Origin: Candidatus Liptonbacteria bacterium
GTDB taxonomy: Bacteria; Patescibacteriota; Minisyncoccia; UBA6257; 2-01-FULL-56-20
Assembly (NCBI GenBank): GCA_016186635.1
Contig: JACPLI010000020.1
Coordinates: 3,548-67,547 of the forward strand
Direction of reading: 5' to 3'
DNA: 64,000 nucleotides
Position 1 is the stretch's first letter. Every line of letters starts with the position of its first letter. Shown piece after piece: positions 9,904-63,646 of this stretch. The notes beneath the pieces are model-generated. The model had not been told where the DNA came from and did not search any database. It was given only the letters and a program-made list of their open reading frames with translations. Both the position numbers and the translations under genes were made by a program.

Positions 9904-10008
9904 CTGCGGCCCATTAATAGGAGAATTTATGGTTCCTATACCCGCATTTACCCATTCGTGCGAATGTGTCCATTGATGGTGACAGGGATATTGTGTAGAA
10001 TCAAGAAA

Positions 10009-11850
10009 ATGAATTCTCAGGCTCGGCAGTGTCAGAATTGCAAATCAAGGTTTTTAATCGAGCAGGATGACCTTGCATTTTATGAGAAATTGTCCGCCAA
10101 AGGCGGATCCGCCTCCGGCGGAAAAGTCCCGCTTCCGACCTTCTGCTGGCTCTGCCGTGCCCAGCGGCGGATGGCGTTTCGGAACGAGCGTGTTCTCTAT
10201 AAACGGAAGAGTGATTTTTCCGGGAAGGATATCTTCAGCATGTATGCCCCTGACTCAGGGTACAAAGTGTATGAAAAAGATATATGGGTGAGCGACCAAT
10301 GGGACCCGCTCACGTACGGCAGGGATTATGATTTCAACCGCCCGTTCTTCGAGCAGTTTAATGAGCTTTTGCACGCGGTGCCGCTTAAAAATCTGAACGT
10401 GGTGAACGGCGTACGGAGCGATTACAGCAACAATTTCACCGACCCGAAGAATTGCTATCTCTGCTTCAACGGCAATAATTCCGAGGATTGCATGTACAGC
10501 CACGGGCTTACACAATGCCGGGATTGCGTGGATGTGTCGCATCTTGCAAAGAGCGAGTCGTGCTATGACTGTTTCTGGGTGACTTCCGGGAACCGGAATG
10601 TGGGTTGTGTGAATTGCGAGAACTCTTTCAATATGTGGTTTTCGAAGAATTGCGTTGGCTGCTCAGACTGCGTGGGATGCGCGGGACTCCGGAAAAAGCA
10701 GTATTGCATTTGGAACGAGCAGTACTCAAAAGAGGAATATTTGGCAAAGCTCAAGGAATTAAATTTGGGCTCGCATACGCAGTATGAAAAAGCGAAAGCC
10801 AAAGCGAAAGAGTTTTGGCTGAAGTTCCCGAACAAATTTCTCGAGGGGCTTCATAATGCGCGCGTGAGCGGGAACTATATTGACCAATCGAAGAACGTGC
10901 GTAACTCGTTCCTCGTGCGCGAAGGAGAAAACCTGAAGTTTTGCCAGTATCTTCAGGAAACGCCGGGCTCGAAAGATTGCTACGACTGGTCCATCTGGGG
11001 CGACAACGGCCAGCTTATGTATGAATGCCACGCGTGCGGCATCGGGACGCAGAATGTGAAATTCTGCCTTTTCACGCAGGAGGATTCGCACGACATTGAA
11101 TACTCGATGGTCTGCAGCGGCGCGAGCTACCTTTTCGGATGCGTGGGCGTGCGGAAGAAGCAATACTGCATTTTGAATAAGCAGTATACGAAGGACGAAT
11201 ATGAGAAACGTGCGGCAAAGATCCGGGCGCACATGGACGAGGTGCCCTATAAAGATAAGGCAGGGAGAGTATACAAGTACGGCGAGTTTTTCCCGATAGA
11301 GTTGAGTCCCGTGGGGTACAACGAATCCATGGCGCAGGAGTATTTCCCTCTGGGGAAGGAAGAAATAGTTGCGCAGGGATATGCATGGCGCGACACTGCC
11401 GCGCGGGACTATAAGCCCACGAAGCGCCCGGGTGAACTGCCGGACGGCATTGCCGAAGCGCCGGACTCGATTGTGAACGAGGTGATTGCGTGTGCCCATT
11501 CGACAAGCTCATGGCAAGGCGCCAACGGGGGAATGTGCAACCAGCTGTGCACCACCGCGTTCCGCATTCTTCCCGATGAGCTTACGTTTTACCGCAAACT
11601 TGGCGTGCCTCTCCCGCGGCTTTGCCACAACTGCCGGACGTTCGAGCGGTTGAGACACCGCACAGGACTGCAGTTGTATGCGCGGCAGTGCGAATGTAAC
11701 GGGGCACAATCGAAGAACGGCGCGTATGAGAATACCGTCGCGCACTTTCACGCCGTTGCGGCTTGCCCCAACCGGTTTGAAACGGCATACGGACCAGACA
11801 GGAAAGAAATCATCTACTGCGAGCAATGTTATCAGGCGGAAGTCGTGTAG
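10009..11850 (+). CDS. Cysteine-rich protein A of a tandem paralogous pair; Zn-ribbon-like ends and internal CxxCxxCxxC repeats; unknown function
   Basis: N-terminal CQNC...FYEKL...CWLCR and C-terminal CHNCR...CEQCYQAEVV. Two internal repeats end in C-x2-C-x-GC-x-GLRKKQYCI-N-QY-K-EY. It is ~45% identical to the next gene. Confidence 0.7.
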   Translation: MNSQARQCQNCKSRFLIEQDDLAFYEKLSAKGGSASGGKVPLPTFCWLCRAQRRMAFRNERVLYKRKSDFSGKDIFSMYAPDSGYKVYEKDIWVSDQWDPLTYGRDYDFNRPFFEQFNELLHAVPLKNLNVVNGVRSDYSNNFTDPKNCYLCFNGNNSEDCMYSHGLTQCRDCVDVSHLAKSESCYDCFWVTSGNRNVGCVNCENSFNMWFSKNCVGCSDCVGCAGLRKKQYCIWNEQYSKEEYLAKLKELNLGSHTQYEKAKAKAKEFWLKFPNKFLEGLHNARVSGNYIDQSKNVRNSFLVREGENLKFCQYLQETPGSKDCYDWSIWGDNGQLMYECHACGIGTQNVKFCLFTQEDSHDIEYSMVCSGASYLFGCVGVRKKQYCILNKQYTKDEYEKRAAKIRAHMDEVPYKDKAGRVYKYGEFFPIELSPVGYNESMAQEYFPLGKEEIVAQGYAWRDTAARDYKPTKRPGELPDGIAEAPDSIVNEVIACAHSTSSWQGANGGMCNQLCTTAFRILPDELTFYRKLGVPLPRLCHNCRTFERLRHRTGLQLYARQCECNGAQSKNGAYENTVAHFHAVAACPNRFETAYGPDRKEIIYCEQCYQAEVV

Positions 11851-11890
11851 AAGTCCCAATATTTGGAGCGTGTGAGGTATTATAGCAGTT

Positions 11891-13672
11891 ATGAGCGTTG
11901 CGGAGAGGAGGTCTTGCCAGAGTTGCAGGAGCCAGTTCATGATTGAGCCGGAAGACTTTGATTTCTACAAGAAAATCCAGGTCCCGCCGCCCACATGGTG
12001 CCCGGAGTGCCGCTACCGGAGGAGGTTAAGCTGGAGAAACACGTGGCATCTCTTCAAGAAGAAAGACGCCCGCACTGGCGAGGAAATATTCTCGCTGTTT
12101 CCCGAGGAGAGTCCGGTGAAAATTTACGAAAAGGAGTATTGGAACGGGGACGCATGGGACCCGATGGAGTACGGGCGGGAGTATGATTTCACCCAGACGT
12201 TTTTCAGCCAGTTTCGGGAGTTGATGCGCACGGTGCCGTTCCCCGCGCATTCCGTGACAAACCTTTCGAACTGCCAGTACTGCACGAACGCGAACGGCTT
12301 GAAAAACTGCTATCTTGTCCGCGCCTCGACGCTCACGGAGGATTCCCTGTATCTCATTTGGGACCACATGTCGAAACGCTGCCTTGACAGTCACATGACG
12401 AACCGGTGCGAATTGAGTTGCGGGAACATCAATACTCTCCGGTGCTATAAAACCTTCTTCTCGGCGGATTGCGAGGACTGCCAGAACGTCACGCTTTCGA
12501 AGGACTGCGTGGGGTGCAATAACTGTTTCGGCTGCATCGGGCTCCGCAATAAGTCGTACTACATTTGGAACAAGCCGTACACAAAGGAAACCTACGCGGG
12601 GGAGTTGAAGAAGCTCGACATCGGCTCGGCGAAAACCCTCGAAGAATTGCGGCAGAGAGCATATGCGCATTGGAAGAAGTTTCCGCACAAATTTATGCAC
12701 GGGCGGCAGAACGCAGGAGTAAGCGGGGATTATATTTCGGCATCCAAGAATGCGACACACTGCTTTCGTGTCCGCGGCACGGAAGACTCGAAGTTTTGCC
12801 AAAACTTTCTCGATGGGCCCGCGAAGCAGTGCTATGACTATTCGAATTGGGGCGAGAATGCGGAACTCGTGTATGAGTGCCTTATCGCGGGGATGGGCGT
12901 CTACAACCTCCGTTTTTGCTGGAACAACTTTCCGAATGTTAAAAATCTGGAGTATTGCATCTTCTGCCCCAGTTCATCCGATTGCTTCGGCTGTGTGGGG
13001 TTAAAGAAGAAGCAATATTGCATTTTCAATATGCAGTATGCGAAAGATGAGTATGAGAAGTTGAGGAAGAAGATAATCGCGCATATGAACGAGGCGCCTT
13101 ACACCGACAGCGCGGGGAGAGCATACCGTTACGGCGAATTTTTCCCGCCGGAACTCTCGCCGTTTCCCTACGAGGCCACCGAGGCGTACGAGTTTTTTCC
13201 GAGAACAGAGGGGGAAGCCCGCCGGGAGGGATTTGTGTGGTATCCCGTGAAGAAGCAGTCGTACGCCGTTACACTCCAGAGTCCGGCAATTCCCGACTCC
13301 ATCAAGGAGGTCAAGGACATTCTGGACGAAGTAATCGAATGCGCCCATAAGGGGGAATGCAAGGAGGAATGTACGGGCGCGTTTCGCATCGTCCGCGACG
13401 AAATTGAGTTTTATCGGCAGATGAATATCGCGCTCCCGCGGCTTTGCCCGAACTGCCGTCACTATAGCCGCCTCGCGCTCCGCAACCCGCCGAAGTTTTT
13501 CACTCGGCAGTGCCAGTGCGGGGGAGCGGCATCGGAAGATGGAGTGTACGCAAATGCCGTGGAGCATTTCCACGGGGACGGGCATTGTCAAAACGAGTTT
13601 GAAACCTCATATTCCCCGGAAAGGTCGGAAATAGTGTACTGCGAGCAGTGCTATCAAGCCGAGGTTGCATGA
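11891..13672 (+). CDS. Cysteine-rich protein B, paralog of the preceding gene
   Basis: Same architecture. CQSCRSQFMIEPEDFDFYKKIQVPPPTWCPECR at the N-terminus, CPNCRHYSRL...CEQCYQAEVA at the C-terminus. Repeats GCIGLRNKSYYIWNKPYTKETY and GCVGLKKKQYCIFNMQYAKDEY. Confidence 0.7.
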   Translation: MSVAERRSCQSCRSQFMIEPEDFDFYKKIQVPPPTWCPECRYRRRLSWRNTWHLFKKKDARTGEEIFSLFPEESPVKIYEKEYWNGDAWDPMEYGREYDFTQTFFSQFRELMRTVPFPAHSVTNLSNCQYCTNANGLKNCYLVRASTLTEDSLYLIWDHMSKRCLDSHMTNRCELSCGNINTLRCYKTFFSADCEDCQNVTLSKDCVGCNNCFGCIGLRNKSYYIWNKPYTKETYAGELKKLDIGSAKTLEELRQRAYAHWKKFPHKFMHGRQNAGVSGDYISASKNATHCFRVRGTEDSKFCQNFLDGPAKQCYDYSNWGENAELVYECLIAGMGVYNLRFCWNNFPNVKNLEYCIFCPSSSDCFGCVGLKKKQYCIFNMQYAKDEYEKLRKKIIAHMNEAPYTDSAGRAYRYGEFFPPELSPFPYEATEAYEFFPRTEGEARREGFVWYPVKKQSYAVTLQSPAIPDSIKEVKDILDEVIECAHKGECKEECTGAFRIVRDEIEFYRQMNIALPRLCPNCRHYSRLALRNPPKFFTRQCQCGGAASEDGVYANAVEHFHGDGHCQNEFETSYSPERSEIVYCEQCYQAEVA

Positions 13673-13836
13673 CTCCAAATGCCGGAACGCAAGTTCCTCA
13701 AGTGGTGGAATTGGAAGGATTGACAGGGAAGGAATAGCGGGGTATCCTTTTACAAATGTTTCTGACATTCATACAAACAGTAATTGTTCGCCGGAGCCGC
13801 CGTATCTAGAACGGGCGGTCTTTTAAAGTACATCAG

Positions 13837-13863
13837 CAAAAACCGCCCGCAAGGCGGTTTTTG
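13837..13863 (+). terminator. Rho-independent terminator after the Cys-rich pair
   Basis: aaaaaccgcccgcaaggcggtttttgc has a stem ccgcc/ggcgg followed by a T-run. Confidence 0.6.
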
Positions 13864-13986
13864 CTTGGAAAAGGCGATACTCTCCGAAAGCTTCTGGCAC
13901 ACTCTCATATCTTCTCTTCCAGCCCGAAAACGCTCATTCACAAATTCTCCGCGGGCTGGCGGAGAAGACAAACGAAAGGATTAGTG

Positions 13987-14673
13987 ATGACTAAGATTAG
14001 AATTGATACTGCAACGACGTTCACGCCCCACGACCTGCTTGAAAGACTTCTTGTGGTTGAAGAAAAGGCATGGAGCGCTCAGGGGAATGCAATCGCGGCT
14101 TCGGCGGAAAAAATAAGAAGGCGAGTTATGACTTTCCCCGAGGGAGTAGTTATTGCCTGCGACGAAGGCAAACCGGAACTGCCGGTGGCGGGGTCGCAAT
14201 ACTTCTTCCGCTTTGACTGGGACAAGGATTTGAGTCGGCTCACGAGCTGGGAAGAAGCGACGCACAATGGCAATACGTGGGAAGTACACAGGGACGACGG
14301 CACTACGGGTTTCCTCGTGGGCGTCGGAGTTGTGCCGGAATACCGGGGAATGCGCGTAAGCCATAACTTGCGTTTTGGTGAGCATAAAATCTCGGAGTTG
14401 CTTATCGCTTTTGTGCTCGACTCCTTGTTCAATGCGGGAGTGGAACGGGTTATCGCCAATGCCCGGATTCCCTTCTATCACAAAGTCGGGAGTGAAATGA
14501 GGGTTGAAGCGTACTGCGCATTCAGGCAGGAGGGAAAACTTTTCGACCCGGTGCTCCGCTTCCACGAGCGGATGGGCGCGAAAATCCTGAAGCCGGTTTC
14601 GTACAGCATGGACGACCCGGAATCTCGAAATGGAGGCTGCTGGGTTGTTTACGAGAGGAGGTTCGAGAGTTAA
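13987..14673 (+). CDS. GNAT-family N-acetyltransferase-like protein
   Basis: VGVVPEYRGMRVSHNL resembles the acetyl-CoA-binding Q/RxxGxG/A motif. Start reset to M43 of the track ORF. Confidence 0.55.
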   Translation: MTKIRIDTATTFTPHDLLERLLVVEEKAWSAQGNAIAASAEKIRRRVMTFPEGVVIACDEGKPELPVAGSQYFFRFDWDKDLSRLTSWEEATHNGNTWEVHRDDGTTGFLVGVGVVPEYRGMRVSHNLRFGEHKISELLIAFVLDSLFNAGVERVIANARIPFYHKVGSEMRVEAYCAFRQEGKLFDPVLRFHERMGAKILKPVSYSMDDPESRNGGCWVVYERRFES

Positions 14674-34447: not shown

Positions 34448-36559
34448 ATGCAAAAATTTGAACTCGCAAAAGAGTTGAAGCCAGCAGGTGATCAACCAAG
34501 CGCTATCGAGAAGCTTGTGGCGGGATTGAAGAGGGGATACCAGCATCAGACGCTTTTGGGAGTTACGGGGAGCGGAAAGACGTTTACTGTCGCGAACGTG
34601 ATTGCAAAGATACAGAAGCCGACGCTGGTGATCGCGCACAACAAGACGCTCGCGGCCCAGCTTACGAATGAATTCAGGGAGCTTTTCCCGAAGAACTCGG
34701 TAAATTATTTCGTGTCGTACTACGACTACTACCAGCCGGAGGCGTATATTCCATCGTCCGACACCTACATAGACAAAGAAGCGCTTATCAACGACGAGAT
34801 TGATAAACTGCGCCATGCGGCGACGACGGCGCTCCTCACGCGGCGGGACGTAATTGTGGTTGCATCCGTCTCATGTATCTACGGCTTGGGCGCGCCGGAG
34901 ACGTACGCGGAGAACATTTTCCGGTTCAAGGTTGGAGACAGGGTTGAGCGGAAGAATTTTGCGCGAAAGCTTGTTGAATTGCAATTCACGCGCACGAACA
35001 TAAATTTGAAGCGCGGTACGTTCCGCCTTCGTGGAGAGAATTGGGAAATAATGCCGCCGGACAGGGAAGTGATTTACATGCTCGAAGTGCGAAGTTCAAC
35101 TATCGCGGCGATATATGCAACAGACCCTGTAGTTGGGTTTCAGCCCGGCAAGACACCGCCAGTCGAGGAAGTCATCATTCCTCCGGCAAAACATTTCATT
35201 ACCGAAGCGGACGCGCGCGAGCGGGCAATCGGCTTGATTCAGGAGGAGCTCAGGGTGCAACTCAAGTATTTTGAGGAAAATAAGAAATTTCTCGAAGCCG
35301 AACGGCTCGAGCGCCGTACAAAGTTCGACATTGCGATGATACGGGAGATCGGCTACTGCCACGGCATCGAGAACTATTCGCGGCACCTTTCGGGCCGCGC
35401 GGCAGGTACTCCTCCTGAAACTCTTCTCGACTATTTTATGCAGGGTTCGAAATCGCATTCGGATGCAAAGGTTCGACCTTTAGGGGGTTCTCAAGGTCGA
35501 ACCTTGGAAGAACCCGATTTCCTGACCATAATTGACGAATCCCACATCACCGTGCCGCAGATTCAGGGGATGTATCATGGCGACGCGTCGCGGAAGAAAA
35601 CGCTCGTCGAATACGGGTTCCGTCTTCCCTCCGCCGCGGACAACCGGCCATTGAAATTTGCGGAGTTTGAAAAGCGCATAGGGCAGACGATATATACATC
35701 CGCCACGCCGGGACCGTATGAGTTGAAGAAGAGCGGGGTAAAAGCTCGACCTTTAAGGGATTCTCAAGGTCGAGCCTTGGGAGAAACCGGAGGTCAAGTT
35801 GTGGAGCAAATTATCCGCCCTACTGGCCTCGTAGACCCCAAAATCACCATCCGGCCCGCGCGCGGGCAGGTGGACGACCTGATTCCTCGGATCGAGGAGC
35901 GCGTTGCCGCAAAGGAGCGGGTGCTCGTGACGACGCTCACCAAGAAAATGGCGGAGGATTTATCCGCATATCTCGAAGGAAAGAAAATGAAAGTGGCGTA
36001 TCTCCACAGCGACGTGAAAACGCTTGACCGTATCCGCATTCTTACGAACTTGCGGAAGGGTTCGGAGGCGAAGGGCGGATTCGACGTGCTCGTGGGAGTG
36101 AATCTCCTGCGCGAAGGGCTCGACTTGCCCGAAGTGTCGCTCGTCGCGATTCTTGATGCGGACAAGGAGGGCTTTCTCCGGAGCGAGACCTCGCTCATCC
36201 AGACCATCGGGCGCGCGGCGCGAAACGTGCGCGGAGAGGTTTTGATGTATGCCGACCACATCACGGGTTCGATTAAGCGCGCGGCGGGGGAGACCGAGCG
36301 GCGCCGAAAACTTCAACTTGCCTACAATAAAGAACATGGCATTACGCCGAAGACGGTGATGAAGAAAATCACGAGTATCTTGCCGGAAGAGGTGTTGAAG
36401 CTCGAAATGAAGCCGATTCCGAAATCCAAATCCGCAATAGAGAAGCTTATCCGCGAGAAGGAGCGGGAGATGCGCGAAGCGGCGAAAGAGCTGAACTTTG
36501 AATTAGCGGCGATTTTACGAGATGAGATAAAGGTTCTTAAGAGGAGTAATCGCGAATAG
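34448..36559 (+). CDS. uvrB: Excinuclease ABC subunit B
   Basis: GVTGSGKTF, DESHVT-like IDESHITVPQ, QTIYTSATPG, VVEQIIRPTGLVDP, and a C-terminal UVR motif. Two in-frame family-C insertions. The stop codon lies inside a family-A repeat (KRSNRE*). Confidence 0.95.
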   Translation: MQKFELAKELKPAGDQPSAIEKLVAGLKRGYQHQTLLGVTGSGKTFTVANVIAKIQKPTLVIAHNKTLAAQLTNEFRELFPKNSVNYFVSYYDYYQPEAYIPSSDTYIDKEALINDEIDKLRHAATTALLTRRDVIVVASVSCIYGLGAPETYAENIFRFKVGDRVERKNFARKLVELQFTRTNINLKRGTFRLRGENWEIMPPDREVIYMLEVRSSTIAAIYATDPVVGFQPGKTPPVEEVIIPPAKHFITEADARERAIGLIQEELRVQLKYFEENKKFLEAERLERRTKFDIAMIREIGYCHGIENYSRHLSGRAAGTPPETLLDYFMQGSKSHSDAKVRPLGGSQGRTLEEPDFLTIIDESHITVPQIQGMYHGDASRKKTLVEYGFRLPSAADNRPLKFAEFEKRIGQTIYTSATPGPYELKKSGVKARPLRDSQGRALGETGGQVVEQIIRPTGLVDPKITIRPARGQVDDLIPRIEERVAAKERVLVTTLTKKMAEDLSAYLEGKKMKVAYLHSDVKTLDRIRILTNLRKGSEAKGGFDVLVGVNLLREGLDLPEVSLVAILDADKEGFLRSETSLIQTIGRAARNVRGEVLMYADHITGSIKRAAGETERRRKLQLAYNKEHGITPKTVMKKITSILPEEVLKLEMKPIPKSKSAIEKLIREKEREMREAAKELNFELAAILRDEIKVLKRSNRE
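35467..35507. repeat. Family-C double palindrome copy 4, in-frame inside uvrB
   Basis: aaaggttcgacctttagggggttctcaaggtcgaaccttgg encodes KVRPLGGSQGRTLE, which is extra relative to canonical UvrB between LxDY and IDESH. Confidence 0.85.
35740..35779. repeat. Family-C double palindrome copy 5, in-frame inside uvrB
   Basis: aaagctcgacctttaagggattctcaaggtcgagccttgg encodes KARPLRDSQGRALG, inserted between YELKKSG and GQVVEQIIRPTGL. Confidence 0.85.
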
Positions 36560-37011: not shown

Positions 37012-37037
37012 AAACATTGGGAGCTAATCCAAAAACT

Positions 37038-39725
37038 ATGCATAACAAGATAATCATTCGCGGCGCCCGCGAGCATAATTTGAAGAACATCACGCTCGAG
37101 ATTCCGCGCGATAAAATGACTGTGTTCACCGGGCTTTCCGGCTCGGGGAAGTCGAGCATGGCGTTCGACACGATTTTCGCCGAGGGACAGCGCCGCTACA
37201 TCGAGTCGCTCTCCGCGTATGCGCGGCAGTTTTTGGGGCGGCTCGATAAACCGGACGTGGATGATATTGAGGGGCTCTCGCCCGCAATCTCGATTGATCA
37301 GAAAAGCCATTCCCACAATCCGCGTTCGACGGTGGCAACCGTGACCGAGATTTATGACTATCTTCGCGTGCTCTTCGCCCGCGCGGGGAAGCCCCACTGC
37401 CCAAAGTGCGGCAGGGAAATCCAGAAGCTTACGAACGAGGAGATTGTGGATGTCGCCGTCCAAATCTCGAATGAGAATAAGTCAAAGAAAAACATCGTGA
37501 TTCTTGCGCCGGTCGTGCGTGGACGGAAAGGGGAATACTATCAGCTCCTCTACGACTTCTTGAACGCCGGGTTCTCCGAGGTGCGCGTGGACGGGGTTTA
37601 CAAAACGCTCCGCGAGCGAGTGGAATTGAGCAGATATAAAGCGCACTCGATTGATTTGGTAGTGGACCGCATTCCGGCGGGAATTGATTTTTCCGACAAA
37701 GATGCGCGGCTTCGACTTGCGGAGGCGGTTGAGATGGCCTTGAAATACGGGAATGACGTGGTGACGGTTGTGACCGACAAGGAAGTCTCGCTCTCCGCGA
37801 AGTTTACCTGTCCGAACGACGGGTTCTCGTTTCCCGAAATCGAGCCGCGGCTTTTCTCGTTCAACAGCCCGTACGGCGCGTGCCCCCAATGCCACGGGCT
37901 GGGCACGGAAGATGTGTGGTCCGAAAAGATTTGCCTGGTGTGCGCGGGGAAGCGTTTGAAAGAAGAAAGTTTGGGGGTATTGATTAACGGTAAAAGCATA
38001 GCTTCGATCGCGGCGCTATCGATTGGGGATGCGTATATGTTTTTTGAAAAATGGGAAGCATCAATAGCGGGGAAGTCGGACTTCCCGAGGAAGTCCGACT
38101 TCCAAAAATTGGCCTTGAAGGAGATCGCGGAAGCCCCGCTCCGCGAAATAAAAAACCGTCTGAAATTCATGATTGACGTGGGGCTCGAGTATCTCACGCT
38201 CGAACGCCGGGCGGGGACGCTCTCCGGCGGGGAAGCGCAACGAATCCGGCTTGCCTCGCAAGTGGGTTCTCGGCTCGTGGGCACGCTCTACATTTTGGAC
38301 GAGCCGACCATCGGGCTTCACCAAAAAGATAATGCGAAGCTCATCAAGACGCTTCACGACCTGCGTGATTTGGGGAACACGATTGTGGTCGTCGAGCACG
38401 ACGAGGAGACAATTCGGGAGAGCGATTATCTCGTAGACTTTGGTCCCGGCGCGGGTATTCATGGGGGGAAAGTGGTGGCGCAGGGGGCGATTCCAGAGCT
38501 GTTGGGACCAGTGTCATTCCCGCGCACGCGGGAATCCAAGGTATCACAGGGAACTCTGGATTCCCGTTTTCACGGGAATGACAGAAAAGTTCTTACTCGG
38601 CAAAGTCAGGTTTTGAAAGATTCTCTCACTCTTCAGTATTTGCATGGCAAGAAGTTTATTGAAATCCCGAAAGAGCGCCGCGGCGTCGGCAAGGGGACGA
38701 AGCTTATTTCCATCAAAGGCGCGAAAGAAAATAATCTCAAGAACATCGACGTGGCGATTCCCGTGGGGCGGCTTACGGCGGTGACCGGCGTTTCGGGTTC
38801 GGGGAAGTCGAGTTTGGTCTACGACGTGCTCTATAAGACGCTCGCGAATAAGTGGCACGGGGCGAGTTACAAGGAGGGCGCGCATAGCGGAATTTTTGGA
38901 TTAGAGCACATAAATCGAGTGATCAACATTGACCAGTCGCCGATTGGGCGCACGCCGCGCTCGAATCCCGCGACGTATGTGGGTGCGTGGACGTTTGTTA
39001 GAGACCTCTTCGCGGCGACCCCCGACGCAAAAGTGCGCGGCTATAAGCCGGGGCGGTTCAGCTTCAATGTGCCGGGCGGCCGGTGCGAGAACTGCGAAGG
39101 GCACGGCACGCTCGCCATCGAGATGCATTTCCTCCCCACGGTCTACGTGCAGTGCGACATCTGCAAAGGCAAGCGCTTCGACCGAGAGACGCTTGCGGTG
39201 GAGTACCGATCCTCCGCTAAAGCTATGGACGGCAGGCAAAGCAAAAATATATACGAGGTTTTGAAACTCACGATTGAAGAGGCGGTGAAGTTTTTTGATG
39301 AAATCCCGTGGCTCGCGGACCGATTGAAGATTCTGGACGAAGTGGGGCTCGGATACCTCGAACTCGGGCAGTCCGCGACGACCCTCTCCGGCGGAGAAGC
39401 CCAGCGCGTGAAGCTTGCCTCGGAGCTGGGGAAGCGCGACACCCGCCGGACGCTCTACTTGCTCGACGAACCCACGACGGGGCTTCACTTTGCGGACGTG
39501 GACAAATTGCTCCAAGTTTTACAGCGCCTTGTGGGCAGAGGGAATACGGTCGTCGTCATCGAGCATAACTTGGATGTCATCAAAACCGCGGACTGGGTGA
39601 TTGACCTTGGCCCCGAAGGAGGAGAGAAGGGCGGCGAAATTGTCGCCGCGGGCACGCCCGAAGAAATCGCGCGAAAGAAAGGGAGCTTTACGGGGGAGTA
39701 TCTGCGGAGGGTTCTCCAAGGTTAA
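37038..39725 (+). CDS. uvrA: Excinuclease ABC subunit A
   Basis: [18 protein letters not shown], two ABC ATPase modules (GLSGSGKSS / [17 protein letters not shown] x2), and Zn-finger Cys motifs. In-frame family-B and family-E insertions. The stop lies inside a family-C repeat. Confidence 0.95.
38070..38108. repeat. Family-B palindrome copy 4, in-frame inside uvrA
   Basis: gggaagtcggacttcccgaggaagtccgacttcc encodes [12 protein letters not shown]. Confidence 0.85.
38513..38583. repeat. Family-E MITE-like element copy 3, in-frame inside uvrA
   Basis: gtcattcccgcgcacgcgggaatccaaggtatcacagggaactctggattcccgttttcacgggaatgac encodes [24 protein letters not shown]. Confidence 0.85.
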
Positions 39726-44038: not shown

Positions 44039-44302
44039 ATGCTGAAAATCCCGAAAAACGGGGCGGAAATCCAAACGGTCAAAGGGATACAATATCTCGT
44101 TGCCCGGCTGGATGCGCAGAAAACCTGCGCGGACTACCTGAACGCGCTTCGGAGAGGAGAGACCGTGGTTGTGCCGCTTTCAAAAAGGACACATCTCACG
44201 GGGCTTCTTAAGAGGGAATCCATTTTTACTCGGCAAAAGACACTTGTTGCCGGGAAATGGATCTCTTTCACTCCGTGTGAAGAAAGGGAGTTCAAGCCTT
44301 AA
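44039..44302 (+). CDS. Hypothetical protein (87 aa)
   Basis: Strong RBS aaggaggtg 8 nt upstream of the ATG. A terminator follows. Confidence 0.45.
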   Translation: MLKIPKNGAEIQTVKGIQYLVARLDAQKTCADYLNALRRGETVVVPLSKRTHLTGLLKRESIFTRQKTLVAGKWISFTPCEEREFKP

Positions 44303-44362
44303 CTGCGGCTTTGGCACGCGGGGCAGAGCGACTGCCTGGCAACGGAATTGTCGCAAAAATTT

Positions 44363-44395
44363 GGAGGTGCAAAAACGCACCTCCTTTTGCTTTTT
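44363..44395 (+). terminator. Rho-independent terminator
   Basis: ggaggtgc-aaaaac-gcacctcc followed by ttttgcttttta. Confidence 0.8.
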
Positions 44396-44420
44396 ATACG
44401 ACGGGGTATACTCCAAGCGC

Positions 44421-45761
44421 ATGACTGATTTTGACCTGCCTGCTGGCAGGCAGGGAAAATTAAAAGACAAAGTGATACATGATTTTCCGGAGACGCCGGG
44501 GGTGTATACGATGCGGGGTGCAACAAAAAAGGTGCTTTACATCGGCAAAGCGGGAAATTTGCGGCGGCGGGTATCAAGCTATTTTCTACGCGCACACGAC
44601 GCGCGAATCGAGCGACTGATGCAGGAAGTGCGGGAGATTAGCTACGAGGAAACGGATACCGCGCTTGAGGCGCTCATTCTCGAGTCAAAACTCATTAAGG
44701 AAAAGCATCCGGTTTATAACATCCGCGAGCAGGATGACAAAAGTTTTCTCTATGTGGCGATTACGCGCGAGGCGTTCCCGCGGGTGCTCCTCGTGAGAGG
44801 AAAAGATTTCAATGCGGGAAGGATTAGCCTTCTGAAGGAGGCTAAGCCTTCCAAAGCATTCGGGCCATTTACCTCCGGCACGAGTATCCGCGAGGCGCTA
44901 CGGATTTTGAGAAGGATATTTCCGTGGAATACGCATAGGTTAGAAGGTGGAAAGGTGGAAAGGTTAGAAGCGGAGAAGCGGCCATGCTTCGATTACGAAG
45001 TGGGCTTGTGCCCGGGGACGTGTATCGGGGAGATAGATAAAAAAGAGTATCGCAAAAATATACACCGCCTCATAGACGTTTTTGAGGGAAAGAAGAAACG
45101 AGTGTTACTCGGGCTGGAGCGCGAAATGAAGAAAGCGAGTAAAGCGTTGGAATTTGAGAACGCCGCAAAACTGCGGAAACAGATTTTCGCGCTGAAGCAC
45201 ATACAGGATGTGGCGTTACTGAATCAAGATGCCCCAAGGTTTAACCTTGAGGATTCGAAGGTTAAACCTTCGATACGGATTGAAGGATATGACATCTCGA
45301 ACATTTCCGGGACTTCGGCGGTGGGTGCGATGGTAGTTTTTCTAAACGGGGAGCCGGCGAAAAGCGAGTATCGGAAATTTAAGATTTGCACGGTTGCGCA
45401 ATCCGATGATATCGGGATGCTCGAAGAGGTACTGCGAAGGAGGTTTAGGAGACATGGGGCGGAGGATGTTAAGGTTCAACCTTTCGGCACATCAAGGTTG
45501 AACCTTTGGGCGATGCCGAATCTTATTTTGGTTGACGGCGGGAGGGGACAAGTGAACGCGGCGCGGGAGGTGCTTGCAGAGGCGGAGCTCCGAATCCCGC
45601 TCGTGGGCATTGCGAAGGGACCGGAACGGAAAAGGAATGATGTCATCGGCAGAGTTCCAGTGGGGGTCTCGCTCGCCACGCTCATCAGAGTCCGCGACGA
45701 GGCACACCGGTTTGCGATTCGGTATCACAGAAAACTCCGAAGAACCAGGGCGTTTGAGTGA
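44421..45761 (+). CDS. uvrC: Excinuclease ABC subunit C, short form lacking the C-terminal HhH domain
   Basis: GIY-YIG N-terminus PGVYTM...VLYIGKAGNLRRRVSSYF, UVR motif, RNase H-like endonuclease domain, and EAHRFAIRYHR near the end. Three in-frame repeat insertions. Confidence 0.9.
   Translation: MTDFDLPAGRQGKLKDKVIHDFPETPGVYTMRGATKKVLYIGKAGNLRRRVSSYFLRAHDARIERLMQEVREISYEETDTALEALILESKLIKEKHPVYNIREQDDKSFLYVAITREAFPRVLLVRGKDFNAGRISLLKEAKPSKAFGPFTSGTSIREALRILRRIFPWNTHRLEGGKVERLEAEKRPCFDYEVGLCPGTCIGEIDKKEYRKNIHRLIDVFEGKKKRVLLGLEREMKKASKALEFENAAKLRKQIFALKHIQDVALLNQDAPRFNLEDSKVKPSIRIEGYDISNISGTSAVGAMVVFLNGEPAKSEYRKFKICTVAQSDDIGMLEEVLRRRFRRHGAEDVKVQPFGTSRLNLWAMPNLILVDGGRGQVNAAREVLAEAELRIPLVGIAKGPERKRNDVIGRVPVGVSLATLIRVRDEAHRFAIRYHRKLRRTRAFE
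44435..44453. repeat. Family-D palindrome in the uvrC N-terminus
   Basis: cctgcctgctggcaggcagg encodes LPAGRQG. Confidence 0.8.
45236..45272. repeat. Family-C double palindrome copy 7, in-frame inside uvrC
   Basis: caaggtttaaccttgaggattcgaaggttaaacctt encodes PRFNLEDSKVKPS. Confidence 0.85.
45471..45509. repeat. Family-C double palindrome copy 8, in-frame inside uvrC
   Basis: aaggttcaacctttcggcacatcaaggttgaacctttgg encodes VKVQPFGTSRLNLW. Confidence 0.85.
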
Positions 45762-57821: not shown

Positions 57822-57885
57822 CATAGTTTGTTATGTTATGTTTTTTTCTTCTGGCGGTGGAAATCCGCTTGGGAAGGAGATTGCG

Positions 57886-59265
57886 ATGAATACGCAACTC
57901 CAGGAGATGTTCGATGTGATGATGGGAAGAGGTGACAAAAGGTTGCGGGTGTATGGAGGCAAGGGTGGCAACCTTGAAAGGGGTATCGTGCTTGACTCGG
58001 GGAACGCCTTCGGTAGGTCATTGAGTGACTTGCTTGAAAGGCATGAGTACCAGGCGCGGAGGTTTCAGGTGGAACCTGCTGCGGTCATGCAAGTCTTCAC
58101 AGGCTCCATTTCAGGGGTTTCAACAGGAAGGACGCTGGATGGTTTGTTCGATCTTCCGTTGTTCTGTATGGATGTTGCGGAAAACCCAGCATCTTTGGAA
58201 CACACAACCATCACCATGGGTTTCGGAGGTTCGACATCACCAACTCCTCTCCGTTTCCCTGCATATGTCGTGCCAGCGATGAGAATGCTTTGCGGGCTTG
58301 AGGCGCTTGGATTGCCTTTGCCTGCAGTGCGGCTCATTTCAGCACAGATGAGCGCGGTTACCGTAAACGGCATGAATGCGGCGGAACTTTGGCCTGCAAC
58401 ACTTACCAACTTCGCGGCGGCGAAACTCTTCGTGGAAGAGTTTTTTCCGAAGGTTGCCCATCGGCTTCTGGTCGATTTTGATCAGCCGCTTGAGGGGGAA
58501 TACTTGGAAGCTGCGACGGCACTTGGAGAGTATGTCACAAGAGAGGGTAAGAAAGAGCGAATTCTTGATGAGGCCTTTGCAGCGATGGAACGACAGGGGC
58601 GGCAGCATGGCGGGGCAGAGAGAGCAATGTTGTACGTGGCGTTGCACGTTCTCCTTTCGCCTGATTGCACCGCTGGGAAATTCGGTTCTCCATGGGTTTC
58701 CGCATGTCACCAAAATGGCATCGTGGATCAGATTATGATTACCGCAGGGTGCGAGACCGAAGGCTACTTCAACGCCCTTCGGCGATTCCTAGCCGAGAAT
58801 GCTCGGAAGGTTCTCGGTGGAGCAGTGAGGTTTCCTCGCCGATCTTTGCAGGTAATCTTCGGGGCGCATGTTCCTCCGTACTATCCAAGGGTTGGAGAAT
58901 TGGACTTTCAGTCAAGGAGAATCGAGAGCTTGCTTTATGACTTCAAGGGGAAGCCCCGGGGAGATTCCGAATGGCGACGGGCGAGAGCGGATCATGAGCT
59001 GGCCTGGGATTATGACGTGCTTGAAGCCGCCGCAGGGGGCTGGAGGCCGTTTCTCGAGTGGGTGTGGGACACAGCAGCTCTCTTTGAGCTTGCTGATGGA
59101 TTAGGGAACAACGCGCGAGAGCGGTTTGCGGGATTGGTCTTGCGGGATGATAAGCAACGCGACCCTTTCGCCATTTTGTTGGAAGCGTATGCTGAAAAAT
59201 TGAAGGGCAAATCATTTGCTGCTCTATGTGCGCTTCAGCGGCAAAGGTTTCTGAATGGGACATAG
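57886..59265 (+). CDS. Hypothetical protein (459 aa), cluster member
   Basis: Long ORF with ordinary codon usage and no recognisable motif. Start at M17 of the track ORF. Confidence 0.5.
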   Translation: MNTQLQEMFDVMMGRGDKRLRVYGGKGGNLERGIVLDSGNAFGRSLSDLLERHEYQARRFQVEPAAVMQVFTGSISGVSTGRTLDGLFDLPLFCMDVAENPASLEHTTITMGFGGSTSPTPLRFPAYVVPAMRMLCGLEALGLPLPAVRLISAQMSAVTVNGMNAAELWPATLTNFAAAKLFVEEFFPKVAHRLLVDFDQPLEGEYLEAATALGEYVTREGKKERILDEAFAAMERQGRQHGGAERAMLYVALHVLLSPDCTAGKFGSPWVSACHQNGIVDQIMITAGCETEGYFNALRRFLAENARKVLGGAVRFPRRSLQVIFGAHVPPYYPRVGELDFQSRRIESLLYDFKGKPRGDSEWRRARADHELAWDYDVLEAAAGGWRPFLEWVWDTAALFELADGLGNNARERFAGLVLRDDKQRDPFAILLEAYAEKLKGKSFAALCALQRQRFLNGT

Positions 59266-59396
59266 TCCGAGGGTGGACTCGCACGAGTGTTGGTAAACAA
59301 ATTTGAGGGAGACATATGACTTGTGTCTCCCTCAAACCCGTTTCACAGAAGTTGAACCGCATCTCTTAATACGATATTGTGATACGTATATGCACT

Positions 59397-60851
59397 ATGA
59401 AAGAAGTTTTAATTGAACAAAAAAAGCAAATCGCGGAAAAGGTGGACGCGGTGCTCAAGAAAATTCTCGATGGGAGACCGGCGCTCCAGGCGATTGCGGA
59501 GGCGCGCACTCTTGGGGAATACTTGGAGCCTCCGCTCCGATGGAATCCGGAAAAGGGAGCGTTTCCGCTGCGCCCGCTTCTTGAGGACTTAATATTGAAG
59601 GAAGCCGAACGCTTATACGGAATCCCAACGCGCGAGGCGTTGCGGGAAGAGTTTTCCAAAAACTGGGCGGTGGAGACAGGGGCGCATATTTATTTGCCGC
59701 GGCGGTATGACCGACTCGAGAAGAAAGGGGCGGGGCAAATCAATCCCGTGGTGTTTCAGGGGCAGGTGCTGTGGGCGGCGCTGCGGCGCGCGCTTTTGGG
59801 GAGCCGCATTAACTTCAGCATGAATACCGGCCGCATACCGCTCTGCAATGCAAATAGCGGCGCATATTTGGATTTTTCTTTTTCCACGGAGCCGCTCCGC
59901 CTCGTGAGCAACCGCTATATGAATACGCCGCAGCTCTTTATTCCCGCGCTGGACGATGAAAAACTCAAAGAGAAAACCGAACAGCTTCAGGCGCTTGCGA
60001 GTCAGGAAAAAATTACCGATGCCGAATATGCGTACGCGAAGGAAGTACTTGCTGTGTTTGTGGAGCATCGCGACGGGCGCTTCAATCACCAGGTGGCGGT
60101 GGGGCAGGCGCATATTATGAATAAAGTATTGCCGCAGGGAATGAGGCAAGTCACGATTGACCTCGAGAATATCGGCACCGCATTCATAGTGCGGCTTTTG
60201 CGGGACCCGTCGAGTACGCTTTACCGGATATTCAGCGATGAAAAGCTTCGCGCCCGTTTCTATGGCGCATTAAAGGGCATCCGCACCGCATGGGAGGAAG
60301 GGGACAGTATGTTTTACGAAGTGGACCGTTCGGGGAAGGAGCTTAAGCTGCGCGAGTACAGGGGAGACTTAATGCCCGAGGTACTTGCGGACCTGCTTGA
60401 ATCCGAGCGTATTCTCCACAAAGGACTCCTTGGTTTTTATATATTCATCATTGAAGGCGGGTTGTGCCCTATCGGCGGTATGTTCCAGTCGCAATATTGC
60501 ATCGAGCTCCGTGACCGTATGATTCCCATACTTGAGGCGATTGGCGAAGAAGCTCGTGCCGCGCATCTTCAAGAGATGCCCACTGCGGTTGCGGCGACGT
60601 CCCCCTGCTGGGGGCTTGTGCGGAGGGGCGCGGGAGTGGAGCTCTTGATTGCCATGGATTGCATGGCGGTGCCTTTATCCGAAGCCGATTTCGCTAAAAT
60701 TCCCGCCCTCTCCGGAAGGGATTCATTGCGCCTTGCCGCGCCGTCGCTTGCCCAACTCATGCTCCACGAGGAAGCCGGAGTTACTTACGAGGAATTGCGG
60801 GAACTCTTGGGGGAGCATATTGTTACTCGCGGGATGAGTACTGCAACATAA
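59397..60851 (+). CDS. Hypothetical protein (484 aa), cluster member
   Basis: Long ORF with no recognisable motif. Its stop overlaps the next gene's start (ATGA). Confidence 0.5.
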   Translation: MKEVLIEQKKQIAEKVDAVLKKILDGRPALQAIAEARTLGEYLEPPLRWNPEKGAFPLRPLLEDLILKEAERLYGIPTREALREEFSKNWAVETGAHIYLPRRYDRLEKKGAGQINPVVFQGQVLWAALRRALLGSRINFSMNTGRIPLCNANSGAYLDFSFSTEPLRLVSNRYMNTPQLFIPALDDEKLKEKTEQLQALASQEKITDAEYAYAKEVLAVFVEHRDGRFNHQVAVGQAHIMNKVLPQGMRQVTIDLENIGTAFIVRLLRDPSSTLYRIFSDEKLRARFYGALKGIRTAWEEGDSMFYEVDRSGKELKLREYRGDLMPEVLADLLESERILHKGLLGFYIFIIEGGLCPIGGMFQSQYCIELRDRMIPILEAIGEEARAAHLQEMPTAVAATSPCWGLVRRGAGVELLIAMDCMAVPLSEADFAKIPALSGRDSLRLAAPSLAQLMLHEEAGVTYEELRELLGEHIVTRGMSTAT

Positions 60852-61984: not shown

Positions 61985-62018
61985 GCGATAACTAATTATT
62001 TTCACCTTTACAATTACA

Positions 62019-63146
62019 ATGAAGAATCAGGAAATCCAGAAGATATTGTTTGACCTCATACGTTTTAAGACAGAAACAAAAAAGCAGAGCGAAGTGAAGC
62101 GGGCAATCGGGTATATCGGGAAGTTTTTTGCGGGGACTTCGTATGCGGTGAAGCGCTTCGCGAAGCACGGTGTGCATTCGCTGCTGGTGTATCCAAAAGG
62201 TACAAGCTGGAGAAATCCGGAAGTTCTCCTGAACGGCCATGTGGATGTGGTTCCCGCAAGCGAGGCGGGGCAGTATGCGCCATTCAGGCGCGGGCATAAA
62301 GTGTTCGGGCGCGGGTCGTCCGATATGAAAGGAGGACTTTCCGCGATAATCGGCGCGCTTCTTGAACTTGATGCGAAGCGTGTGCGGCATGGTGCGGCGT
62401 TTCTCGTGAACGGCGACGAGGAGGTGGGGGGAGCGCATGGCGCGGGGTATGTGGTGAACGACATAGGCATCCGGCCGAAGTTCGTGGTGGTCGCCGATAA
62501 CCCGCGGCATGAGGGATTTGTGGTTACTACGAAAGAGAAAGGAGGAATATGGCTCGAGCTCACCGCTCGCGGGAGGGCGGCGCATGCGGCGTACCCGTGG
62601 CTCGGCGAAAATGCGCTTGAGAAGCTCATTCATGCGGTGGGGAAGATTCAGCGCCTCGTGGGGAAGGTGCGGCCCGACGCATGGAAGACCACCGTAAACC
62701 TCTCGGGGATTCATACGGACGGCGCGACGCATAACATGGTTCCCGCAGGGGCGCGCGCCATGCTTGATTTGCGCTTCACGGAGGAGTTTGCGAAGAGCGC
62801 GGATGAGGCGTACCGGAAAGTACGGCGCGCGGTGCCGGGGGTGGAAGTGCGTGCGCTTGTGAAAGTGGCGCCGCTCCGAAATAACCATCGGCACGCGCAC
62901 ATTCGGAATTTTCGGTCGCTCTTTTCCCGGACTCTCGGCAGGAAAATTCCCTTCGGGTACGGGCACGGCGCGAGCGATGCGCGTTACTTCGGCGCGCGCG
63001 GTATTCCGAGCATCCTTGTGGGCACCGTCGGCGCGCACTGGCATTCCCGGGGCGAATGGGTTGATTTCCGCACGGTGCTTGCGCTCAAAGACGTGGTAAA
63101 GGCATACATTGTGAAGCACCATGTTCATCGCGAGGTTAACTCTTGA
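62019..63146 (+). CDS. M20-family metallopeptidase/deacylase (ArgE/DapE/desuccinylase-like)
   Basis: GHVDVVPA, GRGSSDMKGG, and VNGDEEVGG. Confidence 0.85.
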   Translation: MKNQEIQKILFDLIRFKTETKKQSEVKRAIGYIGKFFAGTSYAVKRFAKHGVHSLLVYPKGTSWRNPEVLLNGHVDVVPASEAGQYAPFRRGHKVFGRGSSDMKGGLSAIIGALLELDAKRVRHGAAFLVNGDEEVGGAHGAGYVVNDIGIRPKFVVVADNPRHEGFVVTTKEKGGIWLELTARGRAAHAAYPWLGENALEKLIHAVGKIQRLVGKVRPDAWKTTVNLSGIHTDGATHNMVPAGARAMLDLRFTEEFAKSADEAYRKVRRAVPGVEVRALVKVAPLRNNHRHAHIRNFRSLFSRTLGRKIPFGYGHGASDARYFGARGIPSILVGTVGAHWHSRGEWVDFRTVLALKDVVKAYIVKHHVHREVNS

Positions 63147-63301
63147 CGGCTCCTGCTTTCGCGCTATAGTGAATCCAACAATGAATTGCTTCCGCACAAT
63201 CTCGCTTCTTAGCCTCCTTCTTAGCCCGACTAAGGGTGGAGGTTTTGCTTGTGTCCGGATTGCAAAGAGCGAATAGCAAATCGCAAAGAGCAAATAGAAA
63301 C

Positions 63302-63337
63302 AAGCCAGCCCTCCACGGACTGGCTTGTTTCTTTTTT
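63302..63337 (+). terminator. Rho-independent terminator
   Basis: aagccagccctccacggactggctt followed by gtttctttttt. Confidence 0.75.
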
Positions 63338-63646
63338 GGGAACAAGAGTGTGTTTTTTGTTTGTCTAATAATTCAATTTTCCAATGAGAAACATTCAGCA
63401 AAATCTTTTACTTGGATTGCTTCTTCAACTTCTTCTTACAGAGGGAGGGTTTTGTTGGAAATTGGTTTATAGATAGTAACTATAAAACGGATTCCATAAG
63501 CCCCTCCCTGCGCGGAGGGTTTTTTTGAGGTTTCGTTTCGGGGACTACGGACGAAAAAAACATCCCTAGTCCCCGGGTCAAAATCCTTAACAAAGCAACA
63601 CAGGTCCGGCTGCGTTGCAACAAAATGATTGATAGAAAGGAACCGT

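Follow-up and report, generated by a model that had tools for sequence, protein, structure and literature searches.

Treble-clef zinc fingers of the zf_Tbcl (PF13451) and zf_Tbcl_2 (PF23477, TIGR04272) type have been described either as the sole domain of small proteins or as a single appendage, and binding of zinc to the CxxC-x17-CxxC domain has been shown experimentally for small proteins of Methanosarcina mazei (PMC12704099). A second group of described proteins that bears on this study comprises the coupling ATPases of the VirD4/TrwB/TraD kind. A survey from 2025 counted 5,713 VirD4-like type IV coupling proteins (T4CPs) in 2,918 Patescibacteria genomes, i.e. about two per genome; only 148 of them lie near virB4, and the authors stated that exaptation "cannot be ruled out" (PMC12102498). 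According to the same survey, ATPases of the kind found beside the family described here are not linked to virB4 or to a type IV secretion system. Here we describe two adjacent genes, A and B, in a 64,000-nucleotide stretch of a Candidatus Liptonbacteria contig (JACPLI010000020.1, positions 3,548 to 67,547; hereafter the window, to which all coordinates refer). Their cysteine-rich products belong to a large family that carries the cysteine spacing of the two known fingers at both ends. Unlike the known single fingers, however, the family has two double cassettes placed around a core of about 420 residues, and a P-loop ATPase resembling VirD4/TraD is the neighbour that recurs most often. In our assessment the family falls outside any known kind. 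It is a new family, possibly with a new fold and a new gene partnership, and has no demonstrated new function.

Gene A (10009..11850, plus strand) encodes a protein of 613 amino acids with 36 cysteines, and gene B (11891..13672, plus strand) one of 593 amino acids with 37 cysteines, which amounts to about 6% of the residues in both cases. The two genes are separated by 40 nucleotides, and gene A starts at the ATG at 10009 inside a mechanically called open reading frame (ORF) spanning 9958-11850. A first-pass annotation of the window, made from the letters alone, had described two adjacent paralogs of roughly 40-50% identity, each with more than 35 cysteines, a common C-terminal ending CEQCYQAEV(V/A) and no signal peptide or transmembrane segment. 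This description was accurate. In BLASTP the proteins share 44% identity and 60% positives over their full length, both end in the said motif, and the Kyte-Doolittle mean over 19-residue windows peaks at only 1.19 (A) and 1.05 (B), with no transmembrane or signal-like segment in either protein. A third copy is absent from the 64-kb window. Protein B is identical to the Candidatus Liptonbacteria protein HYW65_02705 at NCBI. While B was matched at 100%, the best database match of protein A reached only 81% identity and its exact sequence was not returned; in the source record, protein A may have been left uncalled or given a different start (GTG at 9958).

Proteins A and B each retrieved more than 6,000 database proteins, all of them named "hypothetical", and we found no publications on the family. 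Every informative source name among these matches belonged to Patescibacteria of Paceibacteria-type lineages, which form part of the candidate phyla radiation, in agreement with the lineage-specific function that the first-pass annotation had suspected; the restriction is read from the record names among the best matches only. An exhaustive profile search yielded 4,649 representatives of clusters formed at 50% identity, and at least 587 encoding stretches were found in GTDB species representatives. The best 79 loci bear names such as Lipton-, Nomura-, Staskawicz-, Jorgensen-, Giovannoni-, Sungii- and Niyogibacteria, Paceibacterota and Minisyncoccia. Many family-bearing metagenome-assembled genomes in third-party-annotation records are labelled 'uncultured Candidatus Saccharibacteria' and one is labelled 'Gammaproteobacteria'. 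We regard these labels as unreliable; the genomes are probably of the Paceibacteria type and were mislabelled automatically.

The family is expanded within single genomes. In 85 loci, whose genes were called crudely as longest ORFs and then searched with a hidden Markov model (HMM) of the family, we counted 245 family genes, 1-11 per locus of about 20 kb. Examples are arrays of 10-11 copies (L054), of eight copies in 13.5 kb (L034) and of seven copies (L029), and tandem members are separated by a median gap of 16 nucleotides. Family proteins have about 580 residues and 22-48 cysteines, and the paralogues are 28-60% identical to A or B. Orthologues of the A type (55-81% identity) and of the B type (53-78%) are both widespread and co-occur in the same genomes, and the genes of the two types are non-adjacent in the closest relatives examined. 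Because of these separate orthologue sets, the non-adjacency in relatives and the deep paralogues, A and B represent two subfamilies of ancient origin within a deep, expanded multigene family rather than a recent tandem duplicate. The origin by tandem duplication that had been proposed for them is not supported. A DDE_3 transposase gene (L085:6442-7467, L086:4207-5232) is located some 0.5 kb upstream of the most similar A-type orthologue (81% identity), which may be related to the shifted position of the A-type gene among close relatives.

The zf_Tbcl pattern, two CxxC pairs about 25 residues apart of which the second is followed by a basic helix (CxxCR), is present at both N-termini. In protein A the module spans residues 5-62 (10021..10194) with the pairs C8xxC11 and C46xxC49-R50 and a 10-residue insertion; in protein B it spans residues 4-58 (11900..12064) with the pairs C9xxC12 and C37xxC40-R41, a basic CRxxRR helix and a net charge of +4. 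The finger cysteines of the A module are 98-100% conserved. In an alignment of 445 family members, the cysteines of the two zf_Tbcl CxxC pairs are 94-96% conserved and the finger cysteines overall 89-98%. A C-terminal cassette follows in A at residues 495-613 (11491..11847), composed of a zf_Tbcl copy and a zf_Tbcl_2-like finger of the form C-x17-CxxC, and in B at residues 484-593 (13340..13669), where the zf_Tbcl copy contains C484, C494, C519 and C522 and the zf_Tbcl_2-like finger C541 and C566-x17-C584xxC587. Alignment of the N-terminal with the C-proximal module gave z-scores of 16-17, with none of 500 shuffles matching the score, and thus confirms the earlier suggestion that the N-terminal module recurs at the C-terminus.

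Profile searches lead to the same fingers. PF13451 exceeds the Pfam gathering cut-off of 24 bits in the homologues P0114, with 26.1 bits, and P0083, with 24.5 bits. The family consensus stays below it at 19.9 bits, and A and B themselves give no reportable match. At permissive limits, 21 of 63 members (E ≤ 1) and 15 of 62 (E ≤ 0.01) are matched. PF23477, with a cut-off of 27 bits, is exceeded in the paralogue L034:8240-9982 (29.2 bits) and reaches E values below 0.01 in 23 of 62 divergent members, and its match to the extreme C-terminus of B is weak and below the cut-off (14.4 bits, E 0.031). The motifs FY...P..C..CR and (F/Y)xPxRxxxVYCxxCY are common to the family and the known fingers. On this sequence evidence the end modules appear to be homologous, at the family level, to the treble-clef fingers zf_Tbcl and zf_Tbcl_2. 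The ends had been described as Zn-ribbon-like, and the HMM cut-offs reached in homologues and paralogues support that description in this more specific form.

One of the four fingers is degenerate in the window proteins. The second N-terminal finger (residues 59-86 of B, 12065..12148) has lost all four cysteines of its CxxC-x17-CxxC motif in both A and B, with D, T, E and Y in their place, and in the divergent-paralogue alignment it is intact in about 30% of the 445 members. The C-terminal C-x17-CxxC is present in 94% of the members and the full first CxxC of that finger in only 20%. In a paralogue with two N-terminal fingers, the N-terminal 75 residues align colinearly with the C-terminal 77 residues (z = 24). 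The persistence of the second finger in 30% of the members and the colinearity of the two cassettes indicate that the ancestral plan would have been a double-finger cassette at each end.

Between the cassettes lies the core, approximately residues 60-480, which makes up about 70% of the protein length. Neither the core nor the full-length protein matched anything in Pfam (searched with the family consensus, also split into domains), NCBIfam or PADLOC, a profile search gave no PDB sequence match to the core, and Foldseek searches of PDB and BFVD with AlphaFold2 models returned no significant fold match. The first-pass annotation could assign the proteins to no family and had recommended HHpred and AlphaFold/Foldseek searches; for the core, no characterised family was found. 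The models themselves were confident overall, with a mean predicted local distance difference test (pLDDT) of 86.7 and a predicted template modelling score (pTM) of 0.90 for A, and values of 84.4 and 0.85 for B. Assignment as a known anti-phage defence protein was rejected, as A and B match 0 PADLOC families.

The core contains two related repeats. In A they span residues 134-244 (10408..10740, ending CVGCSDCVGCAGLRKKQYCIWN) and 285-398 (10861..11202, ending FGCVGVRKKQYCILNKQYTKDEY), and in B residues 129-242 (12275..12616, ending CVGCNNCFGCIGLRNKSYYIWN) and 280-395 (12728..13075, ending CFGCVGLKKKQYCIFNMQYAKDEY). Shuffle tests of repeat 1 against repeat 2 gave z = 20.8 (A) and 15.0 (B). The two internal repeats proposed earlier are thus real, with a length of about 115 residues in place of the suggested 90 or so. 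The C-x2-C-x2-C-x2-C run, which had been attributed to both, was found complete in repeat 1 only (CVGCSDCVGC in A, CVGCNNCFGC in B); repeat 2 retains only ...FGCVG(L/V)(K/R)KKQYCI. The cysteine and serine columns of repeat 1 recur with a period of 12 residues (autocorrelation 0.66 at lag 12, subperiods 3 and 9), a periodicity that is degenerate in repeat 2. Because of this periodicity the repeats look like tight solenoids with an internal Cys/Ser ladder, joined by helices.

Described solenoids offer partial parallels. For both independently built models the best PDB matches in Foldseek, all non-significant, were left-handed beta-helix proteins (gamma-carbonic anhydrase, LpxA, LpxD, GlmU and PerB). 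In the beta-solenoids LpxA, LpxD, GlmU and the gamma-carbonic anhydrases, small residues recur periodically, as they do in the family. The family, however, lacks the hexapeptide motif of the left-handed beta-helix and has a period of 12 instead of 18; moreover, it is cytoplasmic rather than secreted, and its predicted core is low in regular strands. A hexapeptide beta-helix was rejected on account of E values of 0.5-10, template modelling (TM) scores of at most 0.18, root-mean-square deviations above 9 Å and the lack of a Hexapep match in Pfam. The Tenebrio antifreeze protein is a cysteine-containing beta-helix with a 12-residue repeat, the same period as in repeat 1 of the family.

The first-pass annotation had seen in the cysteine pattern a suggestion of multiple Zn-knuckle or Fe-S-like units. 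For the core, the alignment of 445 members does not bear this out. Only four central cysteines (C209, C212, C368 and C377 in B numbering) are more than 90% conserved family-wide, whereas most of the others are mixtures of cysteine and serine, for instance C55/S28, C44/S33, C66/S19 and C46/S42. The fourth cysteine of the C-x2-C-x2-C-x2-C run is a serine in 56% of the B-type members. Scans of family members with Pfam and NCBIfam gave no match to Fer4 or any other iron-sulfur model, to a metallothionein model or to the DnaJ finger. Since most central cysteines exchange with serine across the family, a general Zn-knuckle or Fe-S array in the core is not supported. Metal sites specific to the A-type or B-type subfamily are possible, as about nine cysteines of repeat 1 are 90-100% conserved within each of these sets.

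One might still propose that the proteins bind or store metal, or serve in Fe-S or redox chemistry, with the central CxxC/Cys ladder coordinating a chain of ions or clusters. The 22-48 cysteines per protein, the run in repeat 1 and the strong conservation of about nine repeat-1 cysteines within the two subfamilies would suit such a role, as would the recurrence of genes for CutA1 (8 loci) and for an ArsR/SmtB-like helix-turn-helix (HTH) protein (8 loci) in the neighbourhood. The free Cys/Ser exchange family-wide, a cysteine content of only some 6%, the missing ferredoxin and metallothionein matches and the lack of the motif in repeat 2 nevertheless make it very unlikely. A ferredoxin-type Fe-S protein was rejected (no Fe-S model match, fourth cysteine of the run often serine, no run in repeat 2), as was a metallothionein-like store (cysteine about 6%, central cysteines interchanging with serine). 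The residues that are invariant throughout the family are cysteines, glycines, prolines, asparagines and aromatics, and a conserved constellation of histidine or acidic residues as found at catalytic sites does not occur family-wide, which suggests that the family is non-enzymatic.

The neighbours of the family genes in all 85 loci were clustered. The commonest one is a VirD4/TraD-like ATPase of about 500-750 residues, present in 59 copies in 36 of the 85 loci. It matches TrwB_AAD_bind, DUF87, TraG-D_C and T4SS-DNA_transf and, distantly, the VirD4/TraD models of NCBIfam, with scores that fall far short of every curated cut-off; TrwB, at a marginal E value of 0.024, is the nearest relative with a solved structure. 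Thirty-six of the 59 ATPase genes directly adjoin a family gene, and all 36 are co-oriented with it. The ATPases account for 4.8% of the ORFs in the loci, an enrichment of roughly tenfold or more over the two per genome of the survey, which is a rough figure and assumes a gene count per genome. In the Liptonbacteria-like loci L073 and L081 the B-type or a neighbouring family gene is directly followed by a T4CP-like ATPase gene; the ORF after the B-type gene of L087 is truncated, uncharacterised and 411 codons long. In 47 of the 59 ATPases a hydrophobic segment is absent, most lack the N-terminal membrane anchor of the VirD4/TrwB/TraD proteins, and 20 of the 59 carry a CxxC-x15-19-CxxC pattern. 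One tested ATPase (L004:5727-7973) has a central CxxC-x17-CxxC finger scoring 41 bits with TIGR04272, above the cut-off, and a proline-rich, low-complexity C-terminal tail of about 200 residues. PADLOC gave only weak mad8 and HerA-like P-loop matches for the neighbouring ATPases.

We tentatively favour, as a possible rather than an established reading, that the family consists of non-catalytic, polyanion-binding scaffold or adaptor proteins acting with these orphan VirD4-like ATPases. The proteins are soluble, and their two basic zf_Tbcl modules may bind a polyanion, most likely nucleic acid, since the net charge of these modules is +4 and +6 and all other parts of the protein are neutral or acidic. 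Variable solenoid surfaces could give each paralogue its own specificity, and the proteins would act together with the hexameric ATPases, mostly devoid of a hydrophobic segment, that would be their genomic neighbours in the majority of Paceibacteria. A more elaborate form of this proposal holds that the family and the orphan ATPases constitute a hitherto undescribed cytoplasmic machine peculiar to Paceibacteria, in which Zn-finger-capped proteins with a new solenoid fold, a 12-residue Cys/Ser ladder, serve as paralogue-specific substrate adaptors of a hexameric translocase or remodeller exapted from conjugation, with nucleic acid or protein as substrate; we regard this extension as rather doubtful.

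Several observations weigh against the scaffold-and-ATPase reading. No VirD4-like gene lies within the 64-kb window. The interaction with the ATPases is derived from gene context and the binding of nucleic acid from charge, and the neighbourhood could reflect lineage history and not function, the other recurrent neighbours being ordinary housekeeping genes. The solenoid assignment, for its part, rests on the periodicity and on AlphaFold2 regions with a pLDDT of about 70; both repeats reach only about that value (repeat 1 of A about 70-77) and show few regular strands, and the Foldseek matches were non-significant. Finally, the nine or so well-conserved cysteines of repeat 1 could be metal ligands instead of rungs of a structural ladder.

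The proximity to T4CP-like genes also invites the idea that the family proteins are cargo, i.e. effectors that the VirD4-like coupling ATPases send to a host cell, the arrays representing an effector repertoire. Array expansion in organisms thought to be host-dependent would fit. Yet only 12 of the 59 ATPases have a hydrophobic segment, such ATPases are rarely near virB4 (PMC12102498), and the proteins lack a signal peptide. They are tightly folded, Zn-binding and highly conserved, unlike fast-evolving effectors, and no relatives were found in plasmids, phage records or IMG/VR contigs. We therefore consider export remote. The cysteine-rich family also resembles no known relaxase, adaptor or effector among the partners of coupling proteins. 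A type IV secretion or coupling system at the window was rejected, because the window has no VirD4-like gene, the ATPases of relatives are mostly anchorless and a VirB4-like gene cluster does not recur among the neighbours in related loci.

A second feature of the neighbourhood is the dnaK operon. In many Paceibacteria, family genes lie between grpE, dnaK and dnaJ, with DnaK encoded in 16 and DnaJ in 13 of the loci. Typically, grpE comes first, followed by several family genes, a PaaX-like gene in opposite orientation and dnaK; then come an ATPase gene, a family gene, the ArsR-like HTH gene, another family gene, a further ATPase gene and finally dnaJ. This interruption of grpE-dnaK-dnaJ by family genes, two VirD4-like ATPase genes, the ArsR-like HTH gene and a divergent PaaX_M gene was seen in L002, L004, L005, L007, L016, L025, L030, L042, L078, L082 and others; the PaaX_M protein is encoded in 10 loci altogether. 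Such an arrangement, together with cysteine-rich proteins bearing Zn sites, raises the prospect that the proteins serve the DnaK system as Zn-dependent holdases or co-chaperones, whose cysteines possibly make them sensitive to redox state. However, no J-domain, DnaJ_CXXCXGXG or Hsp33 model matched the scanned members, the heat-shock operator CIRCE was not found near these loci, and many arrays, as well as the pair in the window, are far from dnaK, so that a function in proteostasis seems quite improbable to us. The DnaJ CXXCXGXG domain is likewise cysteine-rich, Zn-binding and encoded in the dnaK operon, and the local CxxCxGC of the family is superficially alike. The DnaJ zinc finger (PF00684) was rejected because it matched no family member scanned, although it was readily detected in the true DnaJ next to them; DnaJ_C was also absent from the scanned members.

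Arrays are often located downstream of rpoA-rplQ-rplM-rpsI-grpE, a position that would suit stand-alone housekeeping factors that bind nucleic acid, for instance in RNA or ribosome handling, with one target per paralogue and an incidental proximity of the ATPase genes. Basic treble-clef fingers at both ends and the lack of an ATPase gene near the window pair are compatible with such a role, as is the degree of conservation: between candidate phyla orthologues are 53-61% identical, as compared with 33-58% for the few comparable neighbouring genes. We nonetheless think it unlikely, as only generic fingers and no known RNA- or DNA-binding domain were matched, and as co-oriented, adjoining VirD4-like genes are strongly enriched.

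Otherwise the neighbourhood consists of housekeeping genes (SecDF, FtsW, MurC, ComEC, TrmD, EF-P and tRNA synthetases). Within or beside the arrays, three small unannotated proteins recur (c23, c38 and c49, about 191, 99 and 172 residues, e.g. L069:9423-9995, L052:11797-12093 and L024:4070-4585); none of them has a Pfam match, and the 191-residue protein also lacks a PDB sequence match.

The genomes of Paceibacteria, which rank among the most abundant bacteria without cultivated representatives, are very small, and 1.7-kb genes in up to about ten copies per locus are a large investment for them. The conservation of the family between candidate phyla, about level with that of the few neighbouring genes open to comparison, leads to the same view. 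In addition, the thousands of orphan VirD4-like ATPases of Patescibacteria, which have been flagged as unexplained in the literature, have in this family their first specific genomic partner to be proposed. Work on its function could bring to light a cellular process specific to the lineage, together with a new fold; even otherwise, the family is well delimited as a domain family and could enter database curation.

At the window itself, genes A and B are probably one operon that ends at a strong terminator. A promoter-like site, TTGATG-17-TAGAAT (9973..10001, plus strand), which is a consensus match only, ends 8 nucleotides ahead of the start codon ATG of gene A. Between 9973 and 10008 a Shine-Dalgarno sequence cannot be seen, and GGAG/GAGG is present upstream of gene B. 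Given the short distance from the -10 hexamer to the ATG and the lack of a visible Shine-Dalgarno sequence, the mRNA of gene A might be leaderless or nearly so. The 40-nucleotide gap between A and B contains no terminator-like hairpin. Downstream of gene B, two terminator-like hairpins with U-runs (13797-13826 and 13835-13865, within 13797..13870, plus strand) coincide with an RNA fold z-score of -4.0, in keeping with the strong terminator noted at first pass. The second one, located after gene B and ahead of the next plus-strand ORF, has a perfect 13-bp stem with an A-tract on one side and a U-tract on the other and, owing to these flanks, could terminate transcription both ways.

The surroundings in the window are ordinary, with genes for tRNA-Tyr, UPF0182, RecO, a DUF11 surface protein, an MBL hydrolase, RibD_C, NUDIX and UvrABC. 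Four ORFs had no Pfam match, namely 13861-14673, 57838-59265, 59379-60851 and 61992-63401 (minus strand), of 270, 475, 490 and 469 amino acids, respectively. The first of them, directly 3′ of gene B, likewise matched nothing in NCBIfam or PADLOC, and a GNAT-like motif can be made out in it by eye. The genes for UvrB (34448-36559), UvrA (37017-39725) and UvrC (44169-45761) form a close group on the plus strand. The plus strand holds most genes of the window, and the GC skew is positive in every 2-kb bin but one.

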